A DNA stretch of 64,000 nucleotides from contig CAWHAA010000006.1 in the NCBI GenBank assembly GCA_963827275.1, forward strand, positions 8,961-72,960, given 5' to 3'. The stretch is from an uncultured Spirochaetota bacterium (GTDB lineage: Bacteria; Spirochaetota; UBA4802; UBA5550). The notes under the pieces are model-generated. The model saw only the letters and a program-made list of their open reading frames with translations, made no database searches and was not told where the DNA came from. The stretch's first letter is position 1, and each line of letters begins with the position of its first letter. The translations under genes and the position numbers were made by a program. Positions 27,943 through 59,640 of the stretch are shown here, piece by piece.

Positions 27943-28578
27943 TTAATGTATCTTCCCCGTGGTGCGCAGTATCTCCGAAGCGGTGACCGTGTCCTCGGCC
28001 TGGCTTATTTTTCTGCGCAGCACCACTTCTATGTCCTTCATGTCGTGAATTTTTTCGAGATCTGGCAGTGCCGTGCCGTCCTGTCCCGCCATGAAGGCCA
28101 TCTCGGACAGGGCGCCGAGGGCCTCGGCGATCTTCCTGCTGGACGTCTCCACCGCTTTCGGCGGCTGCCGGTTCTTCATCTTCGTGTCGGCGATCCACCT
28201 CTGTATTTCCGAGTTGTGCGCCGTGATATGCTGTCCCAGTATTCCCGTAATTTTTTGAAGCGTCTCGAGCATGACCCTCTGTTTTTCGTGACGGAGATCG
28301 TTTTCCCGGGCCATGATAAGGGCCTGTTTCATTTTTTGCCACAGGTTGAATGTTATCAGTGTAAAAATAAAGTAGGCGATGATGATCGGGATCATGGGAT
28401 ATGAAAAGGCCGAACCGACAAAGTTATTTTCCAGGTTGAGATACAGGGGCTTCTTTATCAGGAAATAATCTATCAGCATGACAGATAAATGGACCCCGAT
28501 CCCGATGAAAACAATTACCACGATTGACTTCCCGAATTTTGTAAGGACATGGATTATTTCGCTGGAGCGTTCTTTCAT
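27943..28578 (-). CDS. Membrane protein (2 TM + helical C-terminal domain), unknown function
   Basis: 211 aa. The stop abuts the permease start. Two hydrophobic segments are followed by a charged helical region. Confidence 0.5.
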   Translation of the reverse strand: MKERSSEIIHVLTKFGKSIVVIVFIGIGVHLSVMLIDYFLIKKPLYLNLENNFVGSAFSYPMIPIIIAYFIFTLITFNLWQKMKQALIMARENDLRHEKQRVMLETLQKITGILGQHITAHNSEIQRWIADTKMKNRQPPKAVETSSRKIAEALGALSEMAFMAGQDGTALPDLEKIHDMKDIEVVLRRKISQAEDTVTASEILRTTGKIH

Positions 28579-28626
28579 GATGGGCGTCCTTTCAAATGTA
28601 ATAGTGACGTACCGGGCGGCGCTGGG

Positions 28627-29184
28627 CTACAGCACCAGCGGGGGCATGCCCGATACCAGTATTGAAGCTTCTTGACGCAAAGGATTAGTGATTTTACACG
28701 TGACATACGACTTGAAGTTGATGGAATCGCCTGTTTCGAGGATGAATGTCTCGTCATCGAGGACTGTTTCAACACGGCCCGACATGCCAAGGATGATCCT
28801 CTCGCTATTGGCCTCGTCATCAAGCCGGACCAGCTCGAGAATGGCACCGTGCCTGAGAACGACTATGAACGACTCGAGGGCATTGTTTTGCAATTTCGAC
28901 GCAAGCAGGGTGAACGTGATGCCATGATCGGCATTTTCAATGGTTTCGGCTTCCGACTTCCTGACAAAGATATACTTCTTCTGCTCCACCTGTTTGAAAA
29001 AATCTGAAAAATTGACTGCGTAAAACCGGAGCAGCTCCTCAAGGGACTGGAGGGAAGGGGTAATCTTGCCGTTTTCAATCTGGGAAAGAAGGCTGCTGGA
29101 GACATCGATGCGGTGTGCGACTTCTGTTATTGTGTAATTTCTGTCCAGCCTGATTTTTTTTAGAGATTTCCCTATATCCATCAT
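28627..29184 (-). CDS. XRE-family HTH + cupin-domain transcriptional regulator
   Basis: 185 aa. The HTH_3 region is LKKIRLDRNYTITEVAHRIDVSSSLLSQIENGKITPSLQSLEELL. The C-terminal part is a beta-rich cupin-like domain. Confidence 0.8.
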   Translation of the reverse strand: MMDIGKSLKKIRLDRNYTITEVAHRIDVSSSLLSQIENGKITPSLQSLEELLRFYAVNFSDFFKQVEQKKYIFVRKSEAETIENADHGITFTLLASKLQNNALESFIVVLRHGAILELVRLDDEANSERIILGMSGRVETVLDDETFILETGDSINFKSYVTCKITNPLRQEASILVSGMPPLVL

Positions 29185-29210
29185 CCTATTCCAGGTAGCG
29201 CAGAATTATG

Positions 29211-29369
29211 TTATACCACATCGGCCAGAGAAAACATGAACAGCATTAACAATACCACCACGATAACTAATAGTATGGCCGTTGCTATTTTGCCCCTGTC
29301 AATTACCAATTCATAATTTTTAAAGCTTTTCCTGAATTCGTACTTTGCCTTCTTTTCTTTTTCAGTCAT
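29211..29369 (-). CDS. Candidate 52-aa single-TM micro-protein (below the ORF-track cutoff)
   Basis: The minus strand reads MTEKEKKAKYEFRKSFKNYELVIDRGKIATAILLVIVVVLLMLFMFSLADVV*. A GGAG lies 6 nt upstream, and the ORF ends 26 nt upstream of the XRE-cupin start. Confidence 0.35.
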   Translation of the reverse strand: MTEKEKKAKYEFRKSFKNYELVIDRGKIATAILLVIVVVLLMLFMFSLADVV

Positions 29370-29774
29370 CGATCACTCCATTATTGCACATCGTTATAAT
29401 CAGATTAATACCAGCCATCGCGAGAATGATAAAGAAGATCCATTCATGGCGTAGCTTTTTGATATTATTGACAAAGTTTCGAAACGTCAATTAAAAATTC
29501 ATTTATAATGAAAAATAATTGACAAAAATTCATTTAAAATAAATTATAATCTATTGATATTTGAGCGAAGATTCAATAACCGAACAGCAGCCACCCGGCA
29601 ATATAAAAGCAAAATACTCCTTAAATATACATGCCCCTACTATATAAATTTAAATAGAAGGGGTTTATTTTTTTTTAGGCGCATCTGAACGTACAGGTAG
29701 TGGTGATTCCGGCGGGATAACGCACGCGTGTCTGGAAAGAAAAAAAGACAGGCCGCGTGCCTGTCTTTTTAATG

Positions 29775-29847
29775 GGTGGCTGACGGGGCTCGAACCCGCA
29801 ACGACTGGATCCACAATCCAGGGCTCTACCATTGAACTACAGCCACC
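29775..29847 (-). tRNA. tRNA-His(GTG): tRNA-His (anticodon GTG), with the His-specific extra 5' G(-1); CCA not fully encoded
   Basis: The reverse complement is GGTGGCTGTAGTTCAATGGTAGAGCCCTGGATTGTGGATCCAGTCGTTGCGGGTTCGAGCCCCGTCAGCCACC. It folds as a cloverleaf: acceptor GTGGCTG/CAGCCAC, anticodon stem CTGGA/TCCAG, loop TTGTGGA, T-arm GCGGG TTCGAGC CCCGT. Confidence 0.93.
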
Positions 29848-29963
29848 ATATCGAAAGGCCATTATTGTAACGCGGATTTCATTGTCAAGAGCAAATTATG
29901 ATATCAAACAGGCCATAAAACAGCGTTTTTTAGGTGTTTTGTACTAAATAGGGCAAATAACAC

Positions 29964-29992
29964 TTGACAGGAGCGGCCCGGGGAATTATATT
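29964..29992 (+). promoter_or_regulatory. Sigma70-type promoter of the first cold-shock gene (TTGACA-17-TATATT)
   Basis: TTGACA is at 29964-29969 and TATATT at 29987-29992, with 17-nt spacing. This implies a 5' leader of about 125 nt before ATG 30124. Confidence 0.55.
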
Positions 29993-30123
29993 CCAGCCAA
30001 CTGAATAGTTTCACAAATCCTCAATTGTCTTACCTCGAATTTATTCCTGGCTTAAGTAATTGTCGTTTTGATGAGTCTTATTCTTCGGGTATAACCCGCA
30101 TCATTTTTAACAGGAGTTTTTTC

Positions 30124-30327
30124 ATGCCTAAAGGAACAGTAAAATGGTTTAACGAGAAAAAAGGTTTTGGATTTCTTTCTCAAGATGACGGCACCGACCT
30201 CTTTGTCCACCATACCGGGATTGTCGGTAACGGCTTCAAGACCCTCTACGAAGGCGACAGAGTGGAATTCGAGGTGGAGAAGGGCGAAAAAGGGCCCCGC
30301 GCTATTTCAGTGAAAACTATCGCGTAA
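30124..30327 (+). CDS. Cold-shock protein (CspA family, CSD)
   Basis: 67 aa from ATG 30124 after AGGAG. RNP1/RNP2 motifs are present in [33 protein letters not shown]. Confidence 0.93.
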
Positions 30328-34874: not shown

Positions 34875-36052
34875 GAAAGAAGCCGGTCGTCGTCACCGCA
34901 ACGGAGCTCGGCGAGATACTCGACAGGTATTTCGACGGCGGGCCGTCCCTGAATTACGCGCTCAAGGTCGTGGGGCACCCGGGCATAGGAAAATCGGCCA
35001 TCGTGAAGCAGGCGGCCGTGAGGAAGGGGCTGTATTTCATCGATACCAGGCTCGCCTTCAAGGAGAACGTCGACCTCGGCGGGTACCCGGTGCCCGACCC
35101 GGCGGAGCGGCGCATGGTCTACTACCGGCCGAAGTTCATCCCCCCCGAGACGGTGCCGGCCGGGTACAACGGCATCGCCTGGTTCCTCGACGAGTCGAAC
35201 CGCGCGCACCCCACGGTGATCCAGACGCTGTTCCAGATCATCACCGAGAAGACGTGCGGGGAGCATGCGCTGCCGGAACAGACCTCGATCGTGCTTGCCG
35301 GGAACCTCGGCGAGGACGACGATACCACGATAACGGAATTCGACGACTCCGCCCTTGACGGGCGGCTGGCCGTGTTCCAGCTCAAGCCGGACGCGCGCGA
35401 ATGGCTCGCCTGGGCGGAGCGGGAAGCGATACACCCCTCGATCACCCGGTACATCGCGCTCTTCCCGGAGCGCCTCTGGGACGAGGCGAACATCAACCCG
35501 AACCCGCGGGGGTGGCACCAGGTGTCGCGGGCGATCGAGGGGTCCTACGGGATCGCCACCGAGCAGGAGCTGCACGCCTGCCTGTCGGCGAACCCCGGCG
35601 GGACCCTGCAGAGCGTCATCCATTCACTCGTCGGCGCGGTGGCGGGGGCCGACTTCATCGCGCAGATCACGGCCCCGCGCAGGCTCAGCACCGGCGAGGT
35701 GCTCGCGGGCGACGAGGCGAAGCTGGCCGAGATGGCCGGCGGAACGATCCCCGCGGAGGACGTGCTCTGGGCGCTCTCCGGCGCGGTGCGCGCGCTGCGC
35801 GACCTCAGGCTGGCCAGGGGGGGCGGGGCGCTGCAAGGGGAGGACCTGTCGGAGCTGGCGCACGTGCTCCTCTTCATCGGCGCGGCGCGGGCGGACGCGC
35901 GCCTCTCGTTCTTTTACCTGCTCCTCCGGGACTGCGGCATCTTCTCGCAGGTGCCGGCCGCGCTCGGCCTCGTTGCGGGAGAAGGACGCCGGAAGGCGCT
36001 CCTTGAAAAATTCAGCGCGATCGTCGGGGCGGGCGATGAACGGCAGGCTTGA
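34871..36052 (+). CDS. MoxR-like AAA+ ATPase (AAA_5 type)
   Basis: 393 aa. Walker A is GHPGIGKSAIV, Walker B is IAWFLDESNRA, followed by LAGNLGEDD. The C-terminal helical region is unassigned. Confidence 0.8.
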   Translation: MRKKPVVVTATELGEILDRYFDGGPSLNYALKVVGHPGIGKSAIVKQAAVRKGLYFIDTRLAFKENVDLGGYPVPDPAERRMVYYRPKFIPPETVPAGYNGIAWFLDESNRAHPTVIQTLFQIITEKTCGEHALPEQTSIVLAGNLGEDDDTTITEFDDSALDGRLAVFQLKPDAREWLAWAEREAIHPSITRYIALFPERLWDEANINPNPRGWHQVSRAIEGSYGIATEQELHACLSANPGGTLQSVIHSLVGAVAGADFIAQITAPRRLSTGEVLAGDEAKLAEMAGGTIPAEDVLWALSGAVRALRDLRLARGGGALQGEDLSELAHVLLFIGAARADARLSFFYLLLRDCGIFSQVPAALGLVAGEGRRKALLEKFSAIVGAGDERQA

Positions 36053-37442
36053 ACAGGTCCTCGAGGCCCTGTGGCGGCGGAGCAGGTTCGTATCGTACTT
36101 TTACCAGGCCGTGCAGTTTTCCGCGGAGCCGGGCATCCCGACCATCGCCCTGTCGGTGCGCGATGCGCGCCTCGTGATGTATTACAACCCCGCCTTTACG
36201 GAACAGATGACCGATGACGAGATGACCGGGCTCCTCGTGCACGAGATGCTCCACGTGGTGCTGAACCATGACCACCGGGCCTTCAGCGCCGAAGAGCGCT
36301 ACCTCCAGAACCTCGCCCAGGACATGGTGGTGAACAGCTTCATCGCCGGGGCGCGGGACAATTTCTTTTCCCGTAAGGACCGGCAGGACGGGGCCGCCCC
36401 GCTGCTGCTGCCGCGGGGGCTCCCCCTCGTCCCGCGCGCGTTCGTGAAAGAGACCGGCGTCGCCGATCCCTCGTGGGAGGAGGTGTTCCGCTGGCTGAAA
36501 GGCCGGCCGAAGCGGAGCCTCGGGGAGCTGGCGGCCGGCGATACCTGCACGCCCGGGCCGGCGCCGGGCGCGGCCGCTTCCGGCGATGACGGTGCGCCCC
36601 CTGACTTCAACACGTTACTTGCCGGCGAGCCCGGCATCAGCGCGATATCCTTCGACGGCATGGAGGGCATGGCTTTTGTCGACGGCCTCGACCGGATCGT
36701 GCCGACCGGCATGCATGTCTGCCTTGACCGCGCGGGGCTCGCGGACCTGGATGCGCGGAAGTCCGCGCTCCTCGGCATGGCGGGCAGGGACCGCGAGTTT
36801 GCGCAGGAGCGGGCCTTCCAGGAGATCCGGGGGATCATCGAGCGGACGCGCGGGCAGGACACCTCGTCATGGCGGCGGCTCCTCAGGAGCATTGTCGATT
36901 ATTCCGCCCAGTCGCATGAATGGGCGTATACGTACGGAAGGTTCAGCCGGCGCCACTTCGCGAACGGCGTCTATTCCCCGGGCAGGGTGTTCAGGCACCG
37001 GGAGGCCATCACGGTGGCGGTCGATGTGTCCGGCTCCATGGTGATGACGCCCTCCGATATCGAGGAGGCCTTCGGCGCGATCGAGGAGCTGATGGGCAAG
37101 TACCGCGTCCACCTGGTCTGCCTCGACGAGGACCTCTTCATCCCCGAGAAGCGCGGCGACGCGCTCGCCGCGTCGCGGGCGGCAGACCGGCCGTTCGTGT
37201 ACCGCCGGGGCGACTGGAAACTCATACGCACGGGGAGCGGCGGCACCACCTTTTTCTCGCCGCTCTTCAACCGCTACATGAAGGGGCACCGGGAGACGCT
37301 CGTGGTCATCACGGACGGCCACATCTACGACCTTGAACGCCTGAAGCGGTACCATCCCACGGTGTGGGTCATCACGCGGGGGCGGCAGGAGCCCTTTCAC
37401 CCGCCTTTCGGACGGTCGGTGAAGATGGCGGCCGCGTCATGA
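36036..37442 (+). CDS. Zincin-like metallopeptidase domain + VWA domain protein (DUF2201_N/DUF2201-type partner of MoxR ATPases)
   Basis: 468 aa from ATG 36036, overlapping the AAA stop by 17 nt. It has HExxH (LLVHEMLHVVLNH) and a MIDAS-type VWA motif (VAVDVSGSM). The Arg/Ser-rich N-terminal extension in the ORF track (from 35355) is a frame artefact. Confidence 0.75.
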   Translation: MNGRLEQVLEALWRRSRFVSYFYQAVQFSAEPGIPTIALSVRDARLVMYYNPAFTEQMTDDEMTGLLVHEMLHVVLNHDHRAFSAEERYLQNLAQDMVVNSFIAGARDNFFSRKDRQDGAAPLLLPRGLPLVPRAFVKETGVADPSWEEVFRWLKGRPKRSLGELAAGDTCTPGPAPGAAASGDDGAPPDFNTLLAGEPGISAISFDGMEGMAFVDGLDRIVPTGMHVCLDRAGLADLDARKSALLGMAGRDREFAQERAFQEIRGIIERTRGQDTSSWRRLLRSIVDYSAQSHEWAYTYGRFSRRHFANGVYSPGRVFRHREAITVAVDVSGSMVMTPSDIEEAFGAIEELMGKYRVHLVCLDEDLFIPEKRGDALAASRAADRPFVYRRGDWKLIRTGSGGTTFFSPLFNRYMKGHRETLVVITDGHIYDLERLKRYHPTVWVITRGRQEPFHPPFGRSVKMAAAS

Positions 37443-41709: not shown

Positions 41710-43664
41710 TTGAGCTGCAGAACGTCTCCAAGATATACGATACCGGCAAGGTCCAGGTCCGCGCGCTGGACGGCGTGTCTATTACCATCGATGAGGGCGA
41801 GTTCGTCGCGATCATGGGGCATTCCGGCTCCGGGAAATCGACGATGCTCAATATCCTCGGGTTCCTTGACAAGCCTGATTCGGGCACCTACCGCCTCATG
41901 GGCGATGACATAACAGAGCTGGACGATGACGAGCTTTCCCTGCTGAGAAACAGGATCGCCGGGTTCGTGTTCCAGCAGTTCAACCTGCTCCCGCGCATGA
42001 ATTCCATGGAAAACGTGGGGCTCCCGATGGTGTACGCCGGCAAACGGGACTACCGCTCCGAGGCAACGGAGCGGCTCCGCCAGGTGCTGCTGTCGCACCG
42101 CGAGACCCACTACCCGAACGAGCTTTCCGGCGGCGAGCAGCAGCGCGTCGCGATCGCCCGGGCGCTGGTGAACCGGCCCATGATTCTCTTCGCGGACGAG
42201 CCGACCGGCAACCTCGACACGAAGAGCGAGGCGGAGATCATGGCGCTCCTCGAGGAGCTGAACGCGGCGGGCATCACCATCGTCATGGTCACCCACGAGA
42301 ACGAGATCGCCGAGCGCGCGAAGCGGATAATAACGATGCGGGACGGCACGGTGATCTCCGATACCGTGTCAGCCAGGAAGAAGAAGGCGGCGCCCCGGCG
42401 CGGGCATGTCTCGATACGGGAGATACTCGGGGGGGCGAAATCCTCGTTCGGCACCGGTGAATTCGTCGATTTTCTCCGCCAGGCGGTCTCCTCGATCGTC
42501 ACCCACAAGCTCAGGTCGATGCTCTCGATACTGGGCATCCTGATCGGGGTGGCGGCGGTCATATCGATGGTCGCCATAGGCGAGGGGGCGAAGGATTCGA
42601 TCACGCAGAGCCTGAGCTCCCTCGGCTCGAACACCCTGTCGGTGCGTCCCGGCTCGTTCCGCCGGGGCCCCGTTGCCATGGAATCGGGCGCCGTGACGCG
42701 CATCACCTTGGAGGACGCGGACGCGATCGCGCGCCTCGACGGGGTCAGGAGCGTGTCTCCCGCGGTCAGCGGACGGGCGCAGGCGGTGTACGGGAGCAAT
42801 AACTGGAACACCCAGGTGTACGGGGCCGGGGTCGATTATGCCAGGATCAAGAACGCCGTTCCCATCAGCGGGCGCTTCTTCACCGCGGAGGAGCTCCGCT
42901 CCCGCCGGAAGGTGGCGGTGATCGGCGCCACGGTCGTGAAAAACCTTTTCGGGAGCAGGAACCCCGTGGGCCAGACTATCAAAATCAACAGGATAAATTT
43001 CAAAGTCATCGGCATCCTCCCGGTCAAGGGGGTCTCCTTCCAGGACCAGGATGACGTGGTCGTGATACCGGTCACCACCGCGATGTTCCGGGTGCTCGGC
43101 AAGGAGTATGTCGATGCGATCGACGTGGAGATACGGGACCCGAAGATGATCGACGGCACGATCGATTCGATCAGGGAACTCATCATACGGCGGCACCGTC
43201 TGGCCCCCGGCGATGAGGAATCCTTCAACGTGCGGGACATGGCCGAAATCCGCGAGATGATGTCGCAGACCACCGGGACCATGAGCACGCTCCTGGGCAT
43301 CGTGGCGGCCATCTCCCTCATCGTCGGCGGCATCGGGATCATGAACATCATGCTGGTGTCGGTCAAGGAGCGGATCAAGGAGATCGGCCTGCGCAAGGCC
43401 ATCGGCGCGCGGCGCAGGGACATACTGGTCCAGTTCCTGATAGAGTCGTCGCTCCTGACCCTGGCCGGCGGCCTGTTCGGCATCATCCTCGGGTCCAGCA
43501 TATCAATACTCATATCGATGCTGGCCCACTGGTCGGTGAAGATATCCATTTCCGCAATCATGCTTTCCACGATAGTCTCAGTCTTCATCGGGATCGGCTT
43601 CGGGCTCTGGCCCGCGGTGCAGGCGTCGCGGCTGAACCCGATTGAGGCGCTGCGCTGGGAATGA
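41706..43664 (+). CDS. macB: MacB-type ABC transporter (fused ATPase + FtsX-like permease)
   Basis: 652 aa. Walker A GHSGSGKST, signature LSGGEQQRVAIARAL and Walker B ILFADEPTGNLD are present. The C-terminal 4-TM FtsX-type domain has a large periplasmic loop. Confidence 0.9.
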   Translation: MIELQNVSKIYDTGKVQVRALDGVSITIDEGEFVAIMGHSGSGKSTMLNILGFLDKPDSGTYRLMGDDITELDDDELSLLRNRIAGFVFQQFNLLPRMNSMENVGLPMVYAGKRDYRSEATERLRQVLLSHRETHYPNELSGGEQQRVAIARALVNRPMILFADEPTGNLDTKSEAEIMALLEELNAAGITIVMVTHENEIAERAKRIITMRDGTVISDTVSARKKKAAPRRGHVSIREILGGAKSSFGTGEFVDFLRQAVSSIVTHKLRSMLSILGILIGVAAVISMVAIGEGAKDSITQSLSSLGSNTLSVRPGSFRRGPVAMESGAVTRITLEDADAIARLDGVRSVSPAVSGRAQAVYGSNNWNTQVYGAGVDYARIKNAVPISGRFFTAEELRSRRKVAVIGATVVKNLFGSRNPVGQTIKINRINFKVIGILPVKGVSFQDQDDVVVIPVTTAMFRVLGKEYVDAIDVEIRDPKMIDGTIDSIRELIIRRHRLAPGDEESFNVRDMAEIREMMSQTTGTMSTLLGIVAAISLIVGGIGIMNIMLVSVKERIKEIGLRKAIGARRRDILVQFLIESSLLTLAGGLFGIILGSSISILISMLAHWSVKISISAIMLSTIVSVFIGIGFGLWPAVQASRLNPIEALRWE

Positions 43665-43718
43665 CGGCCTCCGGCGGCGCATTCTCCGTCGACCCTGCGT
43701 GCCGCGGCGGTTTTGTAA

Positions 43719-43746
43719 TTGACAGGTGGGTCGATGCAGGTATAAT
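43719..43746 (+). promoter_or_regulatory. Sigma70-type promoter (TTGACA-16-TATAAT) upstream of the CPBP gene
   Basis: TTGACA is at 43719-43724 and TATAAT at 43741-43746. The first ATG (43759) is only about 6 nt from the expected transcription start. Confidence 0.5.
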
Positions 43747-43824
43747 CTATTTATTTAAATGAATCGCGTGCAGCGGCGGCGAGGTGAACTTCCCCCTCGG
43801 AATATTATCGGAAATTTAAAAATA

Positions 43825-44535
43825 ATGGTAAATAAGATATCAACTGCCAGGGCACTCTCGATAGTTTCAATTGCAACGATATATTTTTATACCCTCCTGT
43901 TTACGCTGCTGCCGTTCCTGAAAACTAATTTTGATATTAATCCGGCCCTTTACTGGTTTATTACCGGATATTTCCTGTTTGTACCGCTGTTCCTCTACGC
44001 AATAATTATGGTAAGATCAGAAGGGAATAACAGCATTAAGCAGATTATGCAATCGTTGAATATTCTGCCTTTTTCAAGGAAAGACCTGGCATATGCAATA
44101 ACCGGTCTTCTGGCCCTCTATATCTTGACCGGCAGTATATTTTTTATCTCCTCGTTGCTTGATAAATATTTTGGAATTGCCCCTCTGAGTACAACGCCCT
44201 GGTTTATGGAAATACGGCCCTTTCAGGGGACGGACAAATTATTAATATTGATATGGCTGCCGATGTTCTTTTTTAATATAATCGGGGAAGAACTACTGTG
44301 GAGAGGCTATGTCCAGAAAAGGCTCCAGGTGAAATATTCATGGCCCTTCTGTTCGCTGCTGTGGCTCATGTTTCACGTTCCCTTCGGCCTTGATCTGTTG
44401 ATAATCCTTCTTCCCGCGATATTAATCATTCCATATTCATACCATAAAACTCAAAACACATCGGTCGGAATTTTCATCCACGGGATGTATAATGGGCCTG
44501 TATTTGCCGCAATTGCCCTGGGCGGCATTGCATGA
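43825..44535 (+). CDS. CPBP-family intramembrane glutamic endopeptidase (CAAX protease / Abi-like)
   Basis: A polytopic ORF with CPBP motifs: GEELLWRGY, FHVPFG and HGMYN. The start is either ATG 43825 or ATG 43759. G+C is visibly lower than in the neighbours. Confidence 0.75.
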   Translation: MVNKISTARALSIVSIATIYFYTLLFTLLPFLKTNFDINPALYWFITGYFLFVPLFLYAIIMVRSEGNNSIKQIMQSLNILPFSRKDLAYAITGLLALYILTGSIFFISSLLDKYFGIAPLSTTPWFMEIRPFQGTDKLLILIWLPMFFFNIIGEELLWRGYVQKRLQVKYSWPFCSLLWLMFHVPFGLDLLIILLPAILIIPYSYHKTQNTSVGIFIHGMYNGPVFAAIALGGIA

Positions 44536-44651: not shown

Positions 44652-45890
44652 ATGAAAAAACTATTCGCCGCGCTGAAATCGAAGCTGGTAAAGATCAAAA
44701 ACAACCTCTCCCGGGTCAATGACAGGGAGACGCTGAGCGTGTTCTCCATCGTGGTGCTGGTGTTCCTCGATATATTCATCCTCATTGCCATATTCCGCGG
44801 CCTGGACGAGCACACGCGGCAGCTGACGACGCCGGAGGAGTATGTGCCCGCCGTTTGCAGGGAGATCATACTCGATGATGAATGGGGCGAATCAGGAAAG
44901 CTTGACCGCCTCTCCGGCCTGCTGCTTCCCGGTAGCGATTACTATGAGCGGGAAGAAGAGGAGAAGGCCGGTTCCCTGCACCCCGTGTGCGCAACATGCG
45001 TCGGCAGCATCAAAAAAATGAGGAAGGACAGGGAGCTTGTCTCCCTGTTCAAAACCAGGAACAGGGTGCGTGATGAATATTCCGACCTGAAAGGCTCGAT
45101 CGAGGACCTGAAGGGCTCGTACGACACGTATCTCCTTCAAGTCATAGCCGGGCAGTCGAAATCGGACGCGGCGGACGTCAACAGGATACGGCAGGAGCTG
45201 CAGGTCAAAACCGCGCGTTTCAACGCGGTGGTGGCGCAGCTGGGGCAGGCCGAATCGCGCATCAATGAAAGCGCCGGGGTCGCCGGCTTCTGGAAAGAGA
45301 CGGCCGCCCTGCGGGCGGCGCACCGTGAGAGCCTGAAATCCGAGCTGAAGCGGCTCGAGTTCTGGTTCCCGGTCAAACAGCTGCTGATGCAGCTGGCGTT
45401 CCTTCTCCCGATACTGGTCCTTTTTTACCTCTGGAATTCACGGAGCATCAAAAAGTCGAATGGCCTGCAGACCCTCATTTCGTCGCACCTGCTCATCATC
45501 GCCTTTGTGCCGGTGTTCGTGAAGATCATTGAAACCGTGTACGATATCATCCCCAAGAAATTCATCAAGAAGCTGCTCGATTTTCTCGTCTCCCTGAACC
45601 TGATCGCGGTGTGGCATTACGTGATAATTTTCTTCGCGGTGATCCTCTTCATGCTCCTGATATATATCATACAGAAAAAGATATTCAGCAGGGAAAAGCT
45701 CATACAGAAGAGGATCTCGAAGGGCCAGTGCCTCGAATGCGGGAAAAAGCTCCCCGCGGGCGGCAGGGCATGCCCCTTCTGCGGCTTCGTGCAGACCGCG
45801 CCGTGCCCCTCGTGCGGGGGGCAGACCTTCGTGTACGGGAGCTACTGCAGGGAGTGCGGGGCGGCGGTTGCCAGGGACGCTTCAGTTTAA
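44652..45890 (+). CDS. Membrane protein with coiled-coil loop and C-terminal double zinc-ribbon
   Basis: 412 aa with SD AAGGGGGA. It has 1 + 3 hydrophobic segments. The C-terminus CLECGKKLPAGGRACPFCG..CPSCGGQTFVYGSYCRECG contains four CxxC pairs. Confidence 0.65.
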   Translation: MKKLFAALKSKLVKIKNNLSRVNDRETLSVFSIVVLVFLDIFILIAIFRGLDEHTRQLTTPEEYVPAVCREIILDDEWGESGKLDRLSGLLLPGSDYYEREEEEKAGSLHPVCATCVGSIKKMRKDRELVSLFKTRNRVRDEYSDLKGSIEDLKGSYDTYLLQVIAGQSKSDAADVNRIRQELQVKTARFNAVVAQLGQAESRINESAGVAGFWKETAALRAAHRESLKSELKRLEFWFPVKQLLMQLAFLLPILVLFYLWNSRSIKKSNGLQTLISSHLLIIAFVPVFVKIIETVYDIIPKKFIKKLLDFLVSLNLIAVWHYVIIFFAVILFMLLIYIIQKKIFSREKLIQKRISKGQCLECGKKLPAGGRACPFCGFVQTAPCPSCGGQTFVYGSYCRECGAAVARDASV

Positions 45891-45990
45891 TTAAGATAAC
45901 GATGTATGACCGGAACAATAATTTGAGCTGTTAACGAAAAAATTTGCGGTCATTAAAGACTTATGCGAAATATCCCAGGGTGAATGATAA

Positions 45991-46024
45991 CGGCAGGGCT
46001 GGCAGGCCCTGCCGTTTGCTTTTC
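45991..46024 (+). terminator. Hairpin terminator at the left edge of the low-G+C island
   Basis: CGGCAGGGC-TGGCAG-GCCCTGCCG is followed by TTTGCTTTTC. Confidence 0.6.
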
Positions 46025-46802
46025 TAGATAGGGGGAATGGCTTTTAGAACACTCCTCCTTCCTGCACAGCACCGACGGATTAAGCAATCTTGTAATTGCT
46101 CTATATTATCACTTGTGTGCATTTTTAATGAGTTTATGAAATAAAAGTATTTTAAGAGTAAAATTAGGTACTTTTGACTTTTGTATTGGAAGGCCAATAC
46201 TTGGCTATCCGGATCATTGCAGCGCGTCGTGCCCGCTATAATGTATTTAGCTATTTCAAGTTATATTATAACCATATTTTCAAATAAATATTGTTGTGTG
46301 TTATTGGAAATATTTTCCATCAACCACATTCCTGCGTCATGTTAATAAAAATTCCTATATCCTGGTCCGTGTTCCTTGTCTATTGACTCTTTCTGCAAAT
46401 GCTATAAAGTTTAAAAAATAATAAAAGATTAAAAAAATTTTGTCATTTTTATTGGGAAAATCCTACTAATTATTCAGTAGGGATTATTCAATATTTTATT
46501 GGGTACCCTTCAGTTTGTATTTAAAAAAAATGTTTTGAAAAATCATTTAAACGTTTAATGAAAATCACTGTAGTTTTGTGATCAAATTAAAAAGAAGATT
46601 GCTTGTCGCTATCGGCAATTCGTCATGAAAAAATCAGGTATTGTGTGTCCCTGCGCTGTAGATTGTTTGTTAATTCAGCTTTGCAATAATCATTATGTTT
46701 TTGAATAAGAAATAAAAGATATTTTATAATTTTCAATAATACTAACTCTGATGTTGTTATAAAAAATATTTATATTAAGAGATATTCTTGAGGAATAATA
46801 GT

Positions 46803-49800
46803 ATGAAGTGTCTATATTTTAGTATACAAATAGTCATTTTATTTGTTCTCATAATTATTAAGTCTCAACTATTTTTGTTTGCTGACATTAATCCCGATGG
46901 TTCATTTTCTACTACTGTTAAAATAAAACTCCCGCCTGGTAGAAACGGCGTTCAACCCACTATCTCTTTGAATTACAATTCTAATACAGGTAATGGAATT
47001 ATTGGACAAGGTTGGTCTTTATCAGGTTTATCTTCAATTGTTAGAGACAGTTCTTATCCTGTAAATTATGATGATAATGACCATTATAGTGGGCCGAACG
47101 GTCATTTATTTAAAAATAATAAATATTATCATCACTTAGAAGAAAATTATTCACGTTTCGAAGCAATTGAAAAACAGGGCGGAGGCCCAAGATCGTGGAT
47201 AGAACATCAGCCTGATGGGACTAAATGTCATTATGGCACTACAGATGATTCTCAAGTATATTCACTAAATCATCCAGATTCTATTCGTGTTTGGGCTCTG
47301 CAATCTGTTGAGGATATTAATGGTAACTCATATAAAATAGAATATATGCAGGACCAGGGACAGTATTATCCGGTAAAAATTATTTATACTATGGGAGATG
47401 GAATATCGAAGTATAATGTTGTTGAGTTTGACTATGAAGATAATCGTTCCGATGTTGAAATTTCATATCTTCAAAGTTCGAAAGTCGTTACAGGTAAACG
47501 TTTAAAAGATATAACCGTGAAATATAATGTTGCCTCGATACTTGGTTATAAGATTTTTGGCGATATAGTCAGGAAATACCAGCTTGATTATATTGAAGAT
47601 GGATTGGTTTCTCAAAGTAAGTTGGTCAAAATTCACGAATTTGGTTCAAATGGTGGAGAGTTGCCTGGAACGGAATATGAATATGATTCTTCTAATGACC
47701 CGGTAACGTTTAGTAATTCATCTTCCGTCCCTTGGTCTGGCTATGATACAAGTTTGGGAACATGGCTGGATGGCGATATTGATGGTGATGGCCGCTTGGA
47801 TTTATTTCATGTTTGTTATTTTTGGTTTTGGGAAAAGTATATAAACATATTATTCTCTAACGGAGATGGGACTTATACAATCCCAAAACTTGGTTATATA
47901 CCATTTTCTGGTTATGATACGGGTTTCGGTCAGTGGGTCAATGGCGATTATAACGGAGACGGAAAAACCGACTTATTTCATGCGATACCAGTTATGTGGG
48001 GCCAACAATATATTAATACCTGGCTGTCAAATGGCGATGGAACTTTTAATGTTTTAACATTCAACCCCGGTGGTAATTATCCAACATCAGGAAGATGGAT
48101 TAGTGCGGATGTTAATGGAGATGGTAGAACTGACATGGTGCATTTACGGGGTGCGACTCCCATATATTATTTTAACAGCTGGATTTCAAAGGGAGATGGA
48201 AATTATGAAATGAAATATTTTCAACTTCAAAATCACCTTAATCGATATGCTGGTGCTATTTTGTTTTATTATGGTGGAGCAGTTGTTCCTGTTGCTGCAG
48301 GTGATTTCAATGGTGATGGTAAAGATGATTTTACTATTGTATGGTTTGGTGAATCTCCGGATTTCCCGCAAGTTGATATAGCAACATTACTTTCCCGGGG
48401 GGATGGCAGTTATCATGTCGTACATTATTACCCTTCTAATAATTTTAGAATTACTAGAATCGCAGCAGATGATATTGGAAGACCAGGCATACAGTTTCTT
48501 GTTGGCGATTTTAATGGAGATGGAAAATCAGATATATTACTGGGTTCATTAAATAAAAATATATCGGCTCTTCTTTTATCCAAGGGGGATGGTACTTACG
48601 ATCCCCGTATGGGTTCTACTGATGGAATTGGTTATGACCTGGGTAATTGGGGGATTGCGGATATCAATAAAGATGGCAAGAGTGATGTAGTTCATTACAT
48701 CGGTACTACGGTAAATGTGTGGTTATCCAATGGCAATGGCAATTTTATTTTTCACACAAATTCCATACTCAACGGTGATAATTTAAATGAAGGATTTCGT
48801 TTTCCGGGTGATGATAATGGAGATATGAAAGATGATATTGTAAATATTCAAAATTCATTATTTAAGAAATCTATCAGCATGTTATCGAATGATCTGCATA
48901 ATTCTAATTTAATGGTAAAAATTAAAGATGGATCAGGTGGGAATATTAGCATAGAATATAAATCAATATTTGATGGACCCGATGCAATAAAGGCAGAAGA
49001 TTCAAAATATCCATATATTTCAAATAAATCATCACGTTATTTAGCTACAAAAATGACTGTTACGGATGGCAGAGAATCCTCCTATTCAACAAATTATTAT
49101 TATTACAACGCCAAGTTGTTTTCTGGAATAAAACCGGAAAAGAAAGACCTTCTTTTTGAAAAAGTTATTACAATAAATCAATCTGGCGAGAAGACTATAA
49201 CCGAGTTTATTCAGGATAAGTATCATCTTCATGGGTGTCCAAAAAGGGTTGAGCAATACGCGGATAATGGAACATTCATTAAAACTGTTGATTACCAATA
49301 TTATGATAATACGATTACATTATTTGGCACATATATATCCCACATTAAATCTGTTGTTCAAAATAACTATGATGCGAGTAGCACAACACCTGTGAGTACA
49401 GGAATAAAGTCATATGTTTATGATGGATATGGTAATACATTGCGTGTCGATGACTCAATAACAAATGCCGAAACAATAACAACAATAAATAAATATGATA
49501 TTGATGAATCTTCATGGTTGTTGCGCCGATTATCTGAAACATCAATACTTTCGAATAATATTGAAATCAAGAGAGAAAAATATAATTATTCTGGGAATAA
49601 CCTTGAATCGAATGAAATATTTCATGCGGATAATAATAATTGGATCAAGCAATCATATGTTTACGATTCTAATGGTAATATTATAAAAATATTCGATCCG
49701 CTCGGTCATGTTTCAACAGTGGAATATGATTCAGATTATCGTTCATATCCAATTATAAAAACAAATGCTATTAATCAGTCAGTTTATACGACATATGATT

Positions 49801-57150: not shown

Positions 57151-58319
57151 TGTAAAACTCTGAACTTCATCTGACACTCACCAATCACTTCCAAACTGCC
57201 TGTCAGTTAAAGTTTAGCAGTTTTTCTTTTGCAAGCACTAACGAATCCTTGAACGTATCTATCGGTGTTTTGCCATAACAATATTTTCCACTATGCGGTC
57301 TCTCATTATTATATTGAACAATCCATATGTCAAGATCCTTCTGAAGTTCATCAAGAGTGTTGTAAATTTTCTTTCTAAATGCTATGCGATAAAATTCATC
57401 TTGAATGGTTCGATGAAATCTTTCGCATATTCCATTTGTTTGAGGATGCCGCGTCTTTGTCTTTGTGTGCTCAATATCCTCAATCGAAAGAAACAGTTCA
57501 TAGTCATGACTTTCCATTTTCCCGCAATATTCGGTACCACGATCCGTCAATACTCGGATCAGCTTAATGCTGCTGTTTTCATAAAACGGTATAACCCTGT
57601 CGTTCAATATGTTGGCAGAGGTAATTGGTGTTTTCATATTGTATAACTTTGCAAAAGCCACCTTACAATACGTGTCTATAAAAGTCTGCTGGTATATCCG
57701 GCCAACACCTTTGACCGTTCCTACATACATTGTGTCCTGCGAACCCAGATAACCAGGATGTTCAGATACAATCTCACCATGAGCTTCCTTTTCCTCTTTG
57801 GCTTTCTCTAATGCGGCAAGCTGTGATTCCGTGAGAATGATTCCATCTTGAGCGACCTTGGCCTCAAGTGCCTTGAGCCGCTTCTTCATGGTTTCAAGAT
57901 CATTACGGAGCCATATGCTTCTTACTCCGGTAGGTGAGACAAATATCCCCTGTTTTCTCAGTTCATTAGAAGCCCGAACCTGTCCAAATGCGGGATACTC
58001 AATTGCAATGCTGTTAACTGCAGTTTCAACACTTGGATCAACACGATTCTTTATATTAGCTTTTTTTCTGCTGATTTCTTTTAACGCTTCTTCACCACCA
58101 GTATCATAAAGTTCCTTTAGCCGGTAGTAACTGTCTCGGGAATATCCCATAATGTGACATGCTTTTTTGACATTCCCAATCTGCTCTGCGAGGTTTAATA
58201 ACCCCATTTTGTTCCTGATGACTTTCTGTTCTGTTGTCATGTACTCCTCCGTATAATTATTCAGAGCATTTTCTGCTCCATTTATCGGAAGAGTGTCAGA
58301 TTAAATCGAGTCTATTACA
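57151..58319 (-). mobile_element. IS481-family insertion sequence (1169 bp) with imperfect 29-bp terminal inverted repeats and a 7-bp target-site duplication
   Basis: IRL 57151-57179 is TGTAAAACTCTGAACTTCATCTGACACTC. The reverse complement of IRR 58291-58319 is TGTAATAGACTCGATTTAATCTGACACTC (22/29 identical). The direct repeat CTTTATC lies at 57144-57150 and 58320-58326. Confidence 0.85.
57203..58240 (-). CDS. IS481-family DDE transposase (HTH + rve integrase core)
   Basis: 345 aa. The integrase core includes ..LTDRGTEYCG..HTKTKTRHPQTNGICERFHRTIQDEFY..YNNERPHSG. Confidence 0.9.
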   Translation of the reverse strand: MTTEQKVIRNKMGLLNLAEQIGNVKKACHIMGYSRDSYYRLKELYDTGGEEALKEISRKKANIKNRVDPSVETAVNSIAIEYPAFGQVRASNELRKQGIFVSPTGVRSIWLRNDLETMKKRLKALEAKVAQDGIILTESQLAALEKAKEEKEAHGEIVSEHPGYLGSQDTMYVGTVKGVGRIYQQTFIDTYCKVAFAKLYNMKTPITSANILNDRVIPFYENSSIKLIRVLTDRGTEYCGKMESHDYELFLSIEDIEHTKTKTRHPQTNGICERFHRTIQDEFYRIAFRKKIYNTLDELQKDLDIWIVQYNNERPHSGKYCYGKTPIDTFKDSLVLAKEKLLNFN

Positions 58320-58572
58320 CTTTATCAATATGCAACCTATTTAATAAAGAACGGCGCTGATCTTAATGCCCAAAACAAGAAAAAGGAAACCCCACTACAT
58401 TGTGCTGTATCCAGCAGCAAAATCAAAATGATCGAACTGTTATTGAAAAACGGCGCAGACGTCCATATAAAAGACGAAAAAGGCCTGTCGCCGCTTGATT
58501 ACGCAAATAAAGAGAACAACCCCCGGGTGCTGGCATTATTGAAACGATACGGCACCTGATACTGCCGTCCTT

Positions 58573-59640
58573 TCACCGCCCCAGCTTATATCGCGCCATT
58601 TTGTCCATCGTCAGGCTCCCGAAATACAGGAACCCGCCATGCTCACGCGCGGTGGTGATATCGGAGAGCTTCGCGCCGCCGGGGTCTTGCAGAGAGCCGG
58701 TGATTCGTCCCCGCTCGTCGAGCGACACGACAAGGCCGTACCTGGCGGAATGCGCCCAGAGGGACTCAGGGAGCCTGCCGAGGACCGACTTGATGAACGG
58801 GTGGCCCTGGACCATGTCCAGGGCGTCGTTGCGCACGGTGAAGAGCGCGAGCCAGAAGGTCCCCGCATCGTTGGAGGTGATGTTGTCCGGCATGCCGGGC
58901 AGGTTGTCGATGAAGATGTGGGCCGTGCCGGCCTTCGGTCCCTTCAGCCAGTAACGCCATACCCGGTAGCGGTACGTCTCGTTCACCAGAACGAAGTCCT
59001 CGCCGCGCGACAGCGCCACGCCGTTGGCGAAGCAGAGCCCCCTGAGCAGCACCGTGACCTTCTTCGTCGCGGGGTCGTAGCGCATGAACCTGCCGTGGGG
59101 CCGCGCCTCTATCATGTCCAGCTTGAATTGCTCGAGAGGGAAGGTGTCCGACGCGTCGGTGAAATAGACGGAGCCGTCGCGGGCGATGTCGAGCGCGTCG
59201 GTGGCGCGGAACTTCACCCCTTCGGCCGAGTCGGCGAGGAGGGTGGCCGCGCCGTGTTTGTCGATTGAGACGAGGCCGCGCGAGGCGTCGCAGGCGATGA
59301 GGGCGCCGCTCCGGTCAAACATGAGGCCGAGCACCCTGCCGCCGGTCCGCGCGTAGGTCTCCGGCGCGCCGCCGGGTGCGGTCCGCATGACCGCGCCGTC
59401 AGCGGTCCCGGTGTAGAGGCGGCCCGCAGCGTCAAAGGCGATGTCCTCCGGGCCGTCGAGCCTGCCCGCCGCGATCAGTTCCGCCCTCGCCAGCAGGTCG
59501 TTCGGCGTGAGCGCGCCTGTCATAGCCGGTTTTTTCGGGGGGTGGTAGGCCACCGGGTCCACCGGTGACGTGACCGCGAGCAGTATGATGAGCAGGATAA
59601 CGACGGCTGCTAAAATGGGTGCGAATATCTTTATGCGCAT
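58573..59640 (-). CDS. Strictosidine-synthase-like / SMP-30-gluconolactonase-type beta-propeller protein with N-terminal membrane anchor
   Basis: 355 aa, high G+C. TM anchor MRIKIFAPILAAVVILLIILLAV. Strings typical of the Str_synth family are present (GPEDIAFDAAGRLYTG, YFTDAS, RPHGRFMRYDP, ANGVALS, LPGMPDNI). Confidence 0.75.
   Translation of the reverse strand: MRIKIFAPILAAVVILLIILLAVTSPVDPVAYHPPKKPAMTGALTPNDLLARAELIAAGRLDGPEDIAFDAAGRLYTGTADGAVMRTAPGGAPETYARTGGRVLGLMFDRSGALIACDASRGLVSIDKHGAATLLADSAEGVKFRATDALDIARDGSVYFTDASDTFPLEQFKLDMIEARPHGRFMRYDPATKKVTVLLRGLCFANGVALSRGEDFVLVNETYRYRVWRYWLKGPKAGTAHIFIDNLPGMPDNITSNDAGTFWLALFTVRNDALDMVQGHPFIKSVLGRLPESLWAHSARYGLVVSLDERGRITGSLQDPGGAKLSDITTAREHGGFLYFGSLTMDKMARYKLGR

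Follow-up and report, generated by a model that had tools for sequence, protein, structure and literature searches.

A low-G+C island with a fused TcB/TcC-like RHS protein and a candidate lipoprotein immunity gene at a putative strain-variable RHS site of an uncultured Spirochaetota bacterium

The DNA described here (the window; 64,000 nucleotides of contig CAWHAA010000006.1, assembly GCA_963827275.1, positions 8,961 to 72,960 of the forward strand) originates from an uncultured Spirochaetota bacterium, and all coordinates given below are positions in this 64-kb window unless a different locus is named. The window contains a low-G+C island that carries a gene for a 2156-amino-acid (aa) protein with SpvB, FG-GAP and RHS domains, directly followed by a lipoprotein gene (I1), which is a candidate for the cognate immunity gene, and further downstream a spacer with two orphan open reading frames (ORFs), three ankyrin-repeat genes and an insertion sequence (IS) of the IS481 family (Table 1). 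A preliminary description, made from the sequence alone, had predicted the RHS protein of about 2156 aa, a tightly linked lipoprotein ORF, three ankyrin paralogs and one IS481 element; these genes were borne out by the Pfam domains of the RHS protein (start ATG 46803), by the position of the lipoprotein ORF 5 nt downstream, by the common length (249 aa) and mutual identity (60-66%) of the ankyrin paralogs, and by the Pfam matches, inverted repeats and 7-bp target duplication of the IS.

Table 1. Features of the low-G+C island and of its left border (positions in the 64-kb window)
Feature	Position	Strand	Basis and remarks
Intrinsic terminator of host gene 44652-45890	45989..46016	+	12-bp stem, 8 G-C pairs, T-run
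Low-G+C island	46044..58559	none	Left border by comparison; right border by composition and gene ends
AT-rich non-coding leader	46044..46802	+	Promoter-like hexamers 46701-46730 (consensus match only); GAGG Shine-Dalgarno before ATG 46803
Fused TcB/TcC-like RHS cocoon protein, 2156 aa	46803..53273	+	Pfam SpvB, FG-GAP, FG-GAP_3, RHS_repeat
Predicted Sec (SPase I-type) signal peptide, MKCLYFSIQIVILFVLIIIKSQLFLFA/D	46803..46883	+	Hydrophobic N-terminus; sequence prediction
SpvB/TcB N-terminal domain	46887..47108	+	Pfam SpvB; residues 29-102
FG-GAP (integrin-like) β-propeller repeats, DxNGDG motifs	47772..48839	+	Pfam FG-GAP, FG-GAP_3; repeat families D3, D6
Internal transmembrane hairpin in RHS shell	51732..51905	+	Hydropathy; Cys codon 51903-51905
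RHS repeat-associated core	52086..52325	+	TIGR03696; conserved Asp at 52233-52235, 52314-52316; motif ...GNPIALND-ATGN
C-terminal (candidate toxin) domain, 314 aa, residues 1848-2161	52329..53270	+	Rare family; no Pfam/PDB match; alignment A1
I1, lipoprotein, 193 aa, candidate cognate immunity protein	53279..53860	+	Lipobox IFQSC; 5 nt past RHS stop
Spacer, slightly higher G+C	53861..54827	+	Two ORFs (54066-54356, 54422-54820) and hairpin 54384-54447
Ankyrin-repeat exported protein/lipoprotein, paralog 1, 249 aa	54828..55577	+	Pfam Ank; start re-assigned (MLRKIIF...)
Ankyrin-repeat lipoprotein, paralog 2, 249 aa	55672..56421	+	Pfam Ank; lipobox FTCGC
Ankyrin paralog 3, split by IS	56634..58559	+	Pieces 56634-57150 and 58327-58559 rejoin into intact 249-aa ORF
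IS481-family insertion sequence	57151..58319	-	Pfam rve_3, HTH_29; transposase 57203-58240; 29-nt terminal inverted repeats

Scanned in 500-nt windows, the G+C content drops from 0.48-0.66 outside to 0.23-0.40 inside approximately 46.0-58.5 kb, and it amounts to 0.345 for positions 46030-58559 versus 0.581 for the remaining window. The G+C content at third codon positions (GC3) is 0.14-0.28 for the island genes and 0.38 for the transposase gene versus 0.79-0.87 for the flanking host genes; the abrupt change of composition at both ends, as claimed in the preliminary description, is confirmed by both measures. On the left side, the terminator of the host gene 44652-45890 is the final host feature before the island and is present also in the contigs of sister strains; this terminator had been recognized before, but the exact left edge, formerly placed at 46030, is shifted by 14 nt to 46043/46044. 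On the right side, ankyrin gene 3 ends at 58559 and the stop of the convergent host gene (58573-59640) lies at 58573, i.e. 13 nt apart, exactly as had been described. Also the statement that an integrase, a tRNA gene and a flanking direct repeat are missing holds: no integrase was found in the island, no tRNA gene was found at its borders in a tRNA scan (the sole tRNA gene of the window is tRNA-His, 29774-29846, minus strand), and a comparison of the borders with each other revealed no direct or inverted repeat of at least 8 nt common to both. The Rfam scan gave no match within the island.

The RHS protein starts with a predicted signal peptide that has a cleavage-like site (LFA/D), and an N-terminal signal peptide is predicted for 95 of the 120 listed proteins. 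Residues 29-102 align to residues 31-103 of the TcdB2, YenB and SpvB chains; the RHS repeats match Pfam RHS_repeat with 130 bits, and the repeat-associated core matches NCBIfam TIGR03696 (Rhs_assc_core) with 69.2 bits (cut-off, 32.5). Asp1816, Asp1843 and Gly1846 (numbered from TTG 46788; D817, D844 and G847 in alignment A3) are invariant in the 20 sequences of A3, and the conserved Asp pair is, as judged from these sequences, a putative aspartyl autoprotease. The end of the core reads DPxG[N/H/T] in relatives, and DATGN in the window protein and in its closest homolog, P0002. An AlphaFold2 (AF2) model of residues 1000-2161, computed from 20 sequences (mean predicted local distance difference test, pLDDT, 73.6), contains a high-confidence β-shell, for which Foldseek returned the Rhs cores of type VI secretion system (T6SS) effectors with E-values of 1e-36 to 1e-29, and TcdB2-TccC3 with a TM-score of 0.52 over approximately 1100 columns; the structure of a bacterial teneurin-like protein (TLP; 9IFO) was a weaker match to the shell (TM-score 0.29).

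The Pfam domains found in the RHS protein are SpvB and FG-GAP instead of NHL, and no PAAR, VgrG or T6SS domain was matched by Pfam in this protein. No other ORF of the window exceeds 791 aa, and none is long enough for TcA. The ten window ORFs of 474-791 aa that were scanned yielded no TcA, VgrG or T6SS domain, with small PAAR-only ORFs lying outside of this screen; nine of the ten are of the housekeeping type, and the tenth (35355-37442) has only a putative metallopeptidase domain (DUF2201_N). The earlier observation that T6SS, TcA and VgrG genes are lacking in the window is therefore upheld for the ORFs scanned (474-791 aa) and by the ORF sizes. Among the related loci L011-L017, L021 and L022, no gene of TcA size or with a TcA annotation was present. 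The two Leptospira SpvB-RHS loci, L021 (1733-4727) and L022 (1522-4699), have in common a divergent upstream trio of genes for a protein of about 292 aa, a Kelch β-propeller protein of about 490 aa and a protein of about 203 aa, which is possibly an accessory set for this RHS branch.

The toxin activity of the C-terminal domain of the RHS protein had been regarded as not assignable from sequence; no Pfam or PDB sequence match was obtained with the single sequence or with an alignment, and neither the toxin nor the lipoprotein family is represented in Pfam, with only a sub-threshold NCBIfam match for the latter. An exhaustive HMMER search detected 7 relatives (E <= 1e-3) among 1.84 billion (1.84e9) representative proteins, and those with enough sequence were all located at the C-terminus of RHS cores; one locus was found in JGI metagenomes (pattern scan, 4-sequence alignment). 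A word-indexed search with the domain alone produced a false negative, as it missed the window protein itself and P0002 (67% over the domain); the relatives were recovered by the exhaustive HMMER search and by full-length search, and negative results of the word-indexed search are not to be relied upon for queries rich in Gly, Ser and Tyr. Conserved motifs in the alignment of the domain (A1) are GWG, HWQxRGPNxG, SYNxN, PTS, an Arg, a Glu, LDxxxxHPxAVLHD and an aromatic last residue, and the near-invariant polar residues are R215, E252, H272 and D273, with H266 present in most members. The AF2 model of the domain (pLDDT 69) comprises three N-terminal helices, 8-9 antiparallel strands of 10-12 residues, and C-terminal helices. 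Foldseek returned weak neighbours only (best E 0.02, TM-score ~0.2), all of which are outer-membrane β-barrels, and the predicted strands show an alternation of aromatic/aliphatic residues with Ser/Gly/Thr/Asn (z = 3.9, above all 2000 within-strand shuffles).

This pattern of the modelled strands is compatible with membrane insertion, short of proof. As an alternative within the same toxin-immunity module, the domain may be an envelope-acting enzyme (e.g. a lipid- or cell-wall-modifying hydrolase) in which the β-meander serves as the scaffold of an Arg/Glu/His...His-Asp active site. The near-invariant polar residues of the alignment leave an enzymatic activity possible, the porin matches are statistically weak, and the dyad hydrophobicity would suit a two-layer β-sandwich equally well; however, no enzyme family was matched by sequence or by fold (Pfam, NCBIfam, PDB), and the domain is rich in Gly, Ser, Tyr and Trp and has a conserved aromatic C-terminus, as do membrane β-proteins. 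We therefore consider an enzyme unlikely, and a membrane-inserting domain is preferred in the following.

The lipoprotein gene downstream, I1, has its Shine-Dalgarno sequence (GGAGGG) inside the end of the RHS ORF, and its product has a lipobox in the context IIIFQS-C. Members of the I1 family are encoded downstream of P0002 (locus L011; two paralogs, 77% and 34% identity), of P0121 (L016; 35% identity) and of P0004 (L017). Another family, I2 (signal peptide, transmembrane helices), is encoded directly after P0006 in the locus of a Spirochaetes metagenome-assembled genome (MAG; L014) and as the second gene downstream in L017; neither I1 nor I2 has a Pfam match. L014 also retains a remnant of I1 (14788-15060; 91 residues, hidden Markov model (HMM) E-value 8.5e-18), flanked by I2 and by the lipoprotein gene that comes next, and this remnant is the fossil of an earlier toxin/immunity cassette.

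Over a stretch that ends roughly 25 residues inside the C-terminal domain, the loci L014 and L016 are 98% identical at the DNA level. Past this breakpoint, neither the remainder of the domain nor the first downstream gene (I2 and I1, respectively) can be aligned, and the next gene is 68% identical; accordingly, the proteins P0006 and P0121 are identical to about 25 aa beyond DPTG, and about 55% identical thereafter. A breakpoint of this kind, together with the swapped downstream gene, reads as the standard signature of toxin/immunity cassette exchange. Overall, I1 or I2 is found downstream in five of seven loci and swaps with the domain variant, and none is found in L012/L013 and L015. The earlier suggestion that the lipoprotein may be the immunity protein has gained ground, for I1 follows the same domain family in L011, L016 and L017, is left as a fragment in L014, and takes part in the L014/L016 breakpoint; on this comparative evidence, I1 is a credible candidate for the cognate immunity protein.

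I1 also matched NCBIfam NF047816 (the LIC12231 lipoprotein family; 42.8 bits, E 5.6e-11); this score is below the curated cut-off of 180 bits, and I1 would hence be a distant relative of LIC12231 at most. A link to Leptospira LIC12231 was dropped, as the two Leptospira RHS loci are without I1 or I2.

For the left flank of the island, the encoded protein (44652-45890, 412 aa) was found to be identical on four other public contigs, and the junction was compared for three of these (L023, L024 and L025). The three contigs share 97.5-98.7% nucleotide identity with the left flank in the window, and this similarity ends precisely after position 46043 (...GATAGGGGG[A/G]ATGGCTT), beyond which they agree with each other and not with the window; it is the common end of the match in three sister assemblies that defines the left border as 46043/46044. 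Past the junction, contig L023 (23 kb; Logan SRR30024182 contig 7292; 3026-12575) encodes a 1536-aa lipoprotein (no Pfam match, family not assigned) followed by a 2536-aa SpvB/FG-GAP/RHS protein, which bears an N-terminal lipobox (MKKLILIMLACVALLAIGC) and shares just 25-29% identity with the homologs of the window protein; the G+C content in the region of this RHS locus is about 0.5.

Since a sister strain has a different SpvB-RHS locus at the identical junction, the site is a variable RHS slot. It is bounded by the terminator of gene 44652 and by the convergent gene 58573, and the window island is one of the alternative occupants of this RHS hotspot. An exchange via the conserved flanks, as the simplest route, would account for the absence of an integrase, tRNA gene and repeats. 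The earlier idea of an empty site, i.e. of a simple insertion, was not supported, for the junction in the sister strains holds the other SpvB-RHS locus. On the right flank, no identical record was obtained by exact-protein look-up for the proteins of genes 58573 and 62186, nor for the window RHS protein, and a scan of a genome collection with the right-flank protein returned relatives of 48-62% identity, mostly in MAGs of the Smithella/Syntrophaceae type, with no synteny. The left-flank gene 44652-45890 codes for a membrane protein that carries a double zinc ribbon at its C-terminus and is without family assignment; the identity of this protein in the four other assemblies persists despite 1.3-2.5% nucleotide divergence of the region, and the gene always adjoins the variable RHS slot.

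The closest homolog of the RHS protein, P0002 (75% identity), is encoded on a 228-kb contig of GCA_041753395.1, within an 8.5-kb island of 0.29-0.38 G+C in DNA of 0.5-0.6 G+C (genome, approximately 0.57), at an unrelated site beside rpsF-ssb-rpsR; the P0002 gene is followed by the two I1-type lipoprotein genes and by a gene for a 140-aa ankyrin lipoprotein. A Logan contig, possibly of the same reads, crosses the right junction of this island with 100% identity. The more distant homologs P0003, P0006 (Spirochaetes MAG) and P0008 lie in DNA that matches the composition of their own genomes, which indicates that the RHS family is at home in other genomes and reached the two GC-rich hosts from a low-G+C donor. 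The preliminary reading of the region as an island that carries a polymorphic toxin locus of the RHS type is supported, and the composition and the variable slot mark this island as horizontally acquired.

The extreme contrast in composition, and the departure of three other assemblies from the window exactly at 46043, would also be expected from an assembly artefact, i.e. from a low-G+C fragment of another organism joined into a high-G+C contig. This would require two chimeric joins, both of them in intergenic DNA (after the terminator, and 13 nt beyond the convergent stop), in a contig of 313 kb and between flanks that share host-like GC3. Further, there is the similar island within the 228-kb contig of another GC-rich genome, with its right junction spanned by the Logan contig (with the reservation as to reads given above), and the other RHS locus at this junction in sister strains is as predicted for a natural hotspot. 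We therefore consider an artefact highly improbable, and retain the reading as a natural, horizontally acquired island.

Close to the C-terminal end of the RHS shell, the window protein has a predicted internal transmembrane hairpin, which is a clade-wide feature that had not been flagged in the preliminary description and that is worth an experiment. The order is a first transmembrane helix (TM1), a K/R-rich loop, a second helix (TM2) ending with L-F-G-C, and a Gly/Pro/Thr/Asp-rich linker; the hairpin interrupts the shell some 95 residues ahead of the ARYYD core motif, and the RHS strands restart after the linker. At this site, the AF2 model contains helix-helix, then disorder, then a strand. 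The sequence reads KSRIK-ILPVWAIKTVPVLCFTVFASYGLFG-C and fits the lipobox [LIVMFWSTAG]2-[LIVMFYSTAGCQ]-[AGS]-C with a positively charged n-region and a hydrophobic h-region, and TM2 with the preceding charges and the Cys has, at the sequence level, the form of a lipoprotein signal peptide.

When internal transmembrane segments ending in a lipobox of the PROSITE type were counted, one was found in the window protein and in all of its 11 closest homologs (12/12; 31-75% identity). Of the 120 listed proteins, 33 have it, compared to approximately 0.01 expected per 22-residue window (background, 0.00044 per residue). Polyangiaceae-type proteins, for example, contribute FLSAC and MLGAC, and Leptospira contributes VSSC; another set of homologs has the hairpin and lacks the Cys. 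The invariance of the Cys in alignment A3 is in part due to selection, as A3 was built from sequences already flagged for the hairpin.

From these observations, we interpret the island as probably a toxin-immunity module of the TcdB/TcaC class, horizontally acquired from a low-G+C donor and residing in a strain-variable RHS slot, with a membrane-inserting toxin and I1-mediated immunity. The 2156-aa protein would be exported by Sec, and the RHS shell would enclose the 314-aa C-terminal domain and release it autoproteolytically. The hairpin, with its lipoprotein-signal-like helix 2 and Cys, might tether the cocoon to the membrane, and may split it into two associated pieces. At the envelope of a competitor, the freed domain would act from the periplasmic side, most likely by membrane insertion or permeabilization via the amphipathic β-meander and the helices, and the producer and its kin would owe their protection to the lipoprotein I1, which would be periplasmic and translationally coupled. 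The three ankyrin paralogs would, by analogy, most simply represent a polyimmunity array or accessory binders. The envelope is proposed as the target because I1 and I2 are both exported (lipoprotein, and signal peptide with transmembrane helices, respectively), and because of the amphipathic strands, the weak porin neighbours and the precedent of C-terminal domains of YD shells (PMC13018210).

Several observations weigh against this interpretation. The motif DATGN of the window protein departs from the DPxG of most relatives. The homologs P0003 (L012/L013; 58% identical domain) and P0008 (L015) are not accompanied by any small downstream gene, so that either an immunity gene need not be a neighbour, or the domain is harmless to its own producer. 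The porin fold match is not significant at the E-value and TM-score given above, in a model of moderate confidence, and the conserved R, E and H-x5-HD would suit an enzyme as well as a pore-former. Finally, among the open-access papers searched, none described an RHS or Tc protein with an internal lipobox or signal peptide.

The architecture itself is known. In the TcdB/TcaC class of polymorphic toxins, as described by Zhang et al. in 2012, a signal peptide precedes an SpvB domain and an integrin-like propeller, and the RHS repeats lead up to a variable C-terminus; the same catalogue includes downstream immunity genes, ankyrin-repeat immunity proteins and polyimmunity loci (PMC3482391). The window protein shares the whole of this architecture and is followed by a candidate immunity gene, and differs in its C-terminal domain and in I1/I2, which are without Pfam match; further, a lipobox is described in that paper only for the N-terminus of other toxins, and an internal transmembrane hairpin with a lipobox is not mentioned. 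Sec-exported toxins with YD shells have been described as well (PMC13018210), and the system as a whole, named in the preliminary description as a candidate for an undescribed toxin/immunity system, is therefore a described one. New are parts only, in a class already described: the very rare toxin domain, the family of its lipoprotein partner, and a lipobox-bearing hairpin within the shell.

The bacterial TLPs (Raoelijaona et al. 2026) are Sec/SPII-exported YD shells, anchored to lipid or cell wall, that enclose polymorphic C-terminal domains, some of which are predicted to resemble outer-membrane proteins, and one of which permeabilizes cells and shows toxicity to E. coli only if it is directed to the periplasm; the immunity gene is located directly downstream, and the distribution of TLPs is rare and patchy and includes Thermodesulfobacteriota and Myxococcota (PMC13018210). 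TLPs (PDB 9IFO) are defined by an FN-plug, an NHL propeller and a YD shell, with an N-terminal TIP domain, whereas the window protein has SpvB and FG-GAP; their lipid anchor is N-terminal, whereas the predicted anchor of the window protein is internal. The T6SS Rhs effectors (RhsA, Tse15, Tre23-Rhs, RhsP) provide the best structural matches for the shell of the window protein, and common traits are C-terminal autoproteolysis, an encapsulated toxin (both predicted here), a downstream immunity gene (a candidate here), and transmembrane helices in some classes. In contrast to these effectors, the window protein has no PAAR/VgrG fusion, it has a Sec signal and an SpvB/propeller N-terminus, and its transmembrane segment is near the C-terminal end of the shell and not at the N-terminus.

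The BC subcomplexes of Tc toxins (TcdB2-TccC3, YenB-YenC; PDB 4O9X, 4IGL) share with the window protein the position of the SpvB-like N-domain, the β-propeller, the RHS cocoon and the conserved Asp motif before a hypervariable region of about 300 aa. With this TcB-TcC layout and the TM-score of 0.52 to TcdB2-TccC3, the protein may also be thought of as the BC-type subunit of a Tc (ABC) toxin against eukaryotes, which would dock by its β-propeller on a TcA encoded elsewhere, with eukaryote-directed ankyrin proteins; some related loci are without immunity genes, and ankyrin repeats are common in effectors. However, the window protein is a single fused chain with an N-terminal Sec signal and with the membrane hairpin/lipobox inserted in its shell, whereas the characterized Tc BC subunits are cytoplasmic and are released by lysis. 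The host is a non-pathogen. Moreover, no ORF of TcA size exists nearby in the window or in the related loci named above, the exported immunity-like genes downstream co-vary with the C-terminal domain, and one flanking host protein has its closest relatives (48-62% identity) in anaerobes known from MAGs only (Smithella/Syntrophaceae type). We therefore regard a Tc BC subunit as very unlikely, compared to a toxin of the TcdB/TcaC class.

Similarly, the protein might not be a toxin at all, but a membrane-anchored surface or adhesion shell (a teneurin-like use), with the C-terminal β-domain as an outer-membrane barrel anchor and the lipoproteins as assembly partners. The porin-like β-meander with its conserved terminal Phe/Tyr, the loci without a downstream partner and the internal membrane hairpin would all suit such a function. 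The Asp motif of cleaving, enclosing RHS C-termini is conserved, however, the breakpoint at the start of the domain with the adjacent gene replaced is a signature of toxin/immunity diversification, and about 120 residues follow after the predicted barrel, unlike in autotransporter barrels. A non-toxin shell is improbable in our view, and the toxin-immunity module is retained.

For the delivery of SpvB-propeller-RHS toxins without TcA and T6SS to their target, the conserved lipoprotein-type signal inside the shell offers a testable handle. Tentatively, the hairpin may be a genuine lipoprotein signal within the shell: once Sec has exported the first ~1650 residues, helix 2 would re-initiate translocation, and Lgt and LspA would lipidate and cut at the Cys, to yield a two-piece cocoon with the toxin piece as a lipoprotein. 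This would constitute a clade-wide, TcA- and T6SS-independent route (surface display, vesicles or membrane exchange) for delivery of a β-barrel-like, membrane-inserting domain. We rate this proposal as possible though doubtful; if true, the internal-lipobox route would be common to a broad clade of Leptospira, Polyangiaceae, and MAGs of the Spirochaetes and Chrysiogenales type.

The very rare domain (7 clusters among 1.84 billion representatives) and the exported lipoprotein represent a new candidate pair for a membrane-targeting activity. The comparison of junctions also illustrates RHS loci as exchangeable cassettes, with entirely different SpvB-RHS loci at the same junction in closely related strains of an uncultured anaerobe, and with one of the exchanged loci apparently imported from a donor of about 25% lower G+C. 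Aside from these points, the island is an ordinary polymorphic toxin island.

The remainder of the island comprises the spacer, the ankyrin genes and the IS. The two orphan ORFs of the spacer (96 aa and 132 aa) had been described as two degraded cassette remnants; this could not be substantiated, as nothing similar to them was found among the RHS cores, toxin domains and immunity families. The spacer gave no match to the collected RHS, toxin and immunity proteins (blastx), to the I1 and I2 HMMs, to Pfam, NCBIfam and PDB, or to plasmid (protein and DNA) and viral collections. Between the two orphan ORFs, the DNA at 54384-54447 forms a hairpin with a near-perfect 30-bp stem (-48.8 kcal/mol; z = -8.9 versus shuffles), which could be a terminator, an element of the REP (repetitive extragenic palindromic) or MITE (miniature inverted-repeat transposable element) type, or a recombination scar. 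The G+C content is locally raised at the hairpin, and a strong positive GC skew (0.3-0.4) extends over 54.2-55.2 kb.

The three ankyrin paralogs are colinear, with the start of the first at 54828, and each starts with a hydrophobic segment and a Cys; a clean lipobox is present in the second alone. The NCBIfam matches of these proteins to Legionella Ank effectors are at the level of the repeats only. An ankyrin lipoprotein gene also closes the island of L011; ankyrin genes are absent from the other related loci, and no toxin cassette was found paired with them. The earlier designation of the ankyrin proteins as candidate immunity proteins was not strengthened, as the Imm-Ank proteins and polyimmunity loci (PMC3482391) provide only an analogy, to which the one other island (L011) with an ankyrin lipoprotein can be added. 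The tails of the paralogs 1 and 2, each with a spacer of about 85 nt (55487-55660 and 56331-56504; repeat D2), are 93% identical versus about 61% protein identity overall, which suggests a recent gene conversion or tail duplication.

The IS481-family element lies between two copies of CTTTATC (57144-57150 and 58320-58326), its 7-bp target duplication; it is present as a single copy in the window, and encodes a transposase with 69% identity to annotated IS481 transposases. With other members of the family it shares the rve DDE transposase with an N-terminal helix-turn-helix (HTH) domain, the terminal inverted repeats and the short target duplication, and there are no notable differences. The element is a passenger that disrupts ankyrin paralog 3, and its insertion was recent, since excision of the element and of one CTTTATC copy restores the intact ORF.

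Outside of the island, there are two further low-G+C regions in the window. A second, smaller patch at 43500-44535 (G+C 0.40-0.42) contains an ORF (43759-44535) for a CAAX/Rce1-like (CPBP) intramembrane protease, a family that is frequently associated with bacteriocin self-immunity; this patch is kept in the sister-strain contig L023 and is therefore older than the island. The other, a low-G+C stretch at 28250-30250 (minimum 0.33) around the tRNA-His gene, is possibly an older integration site.

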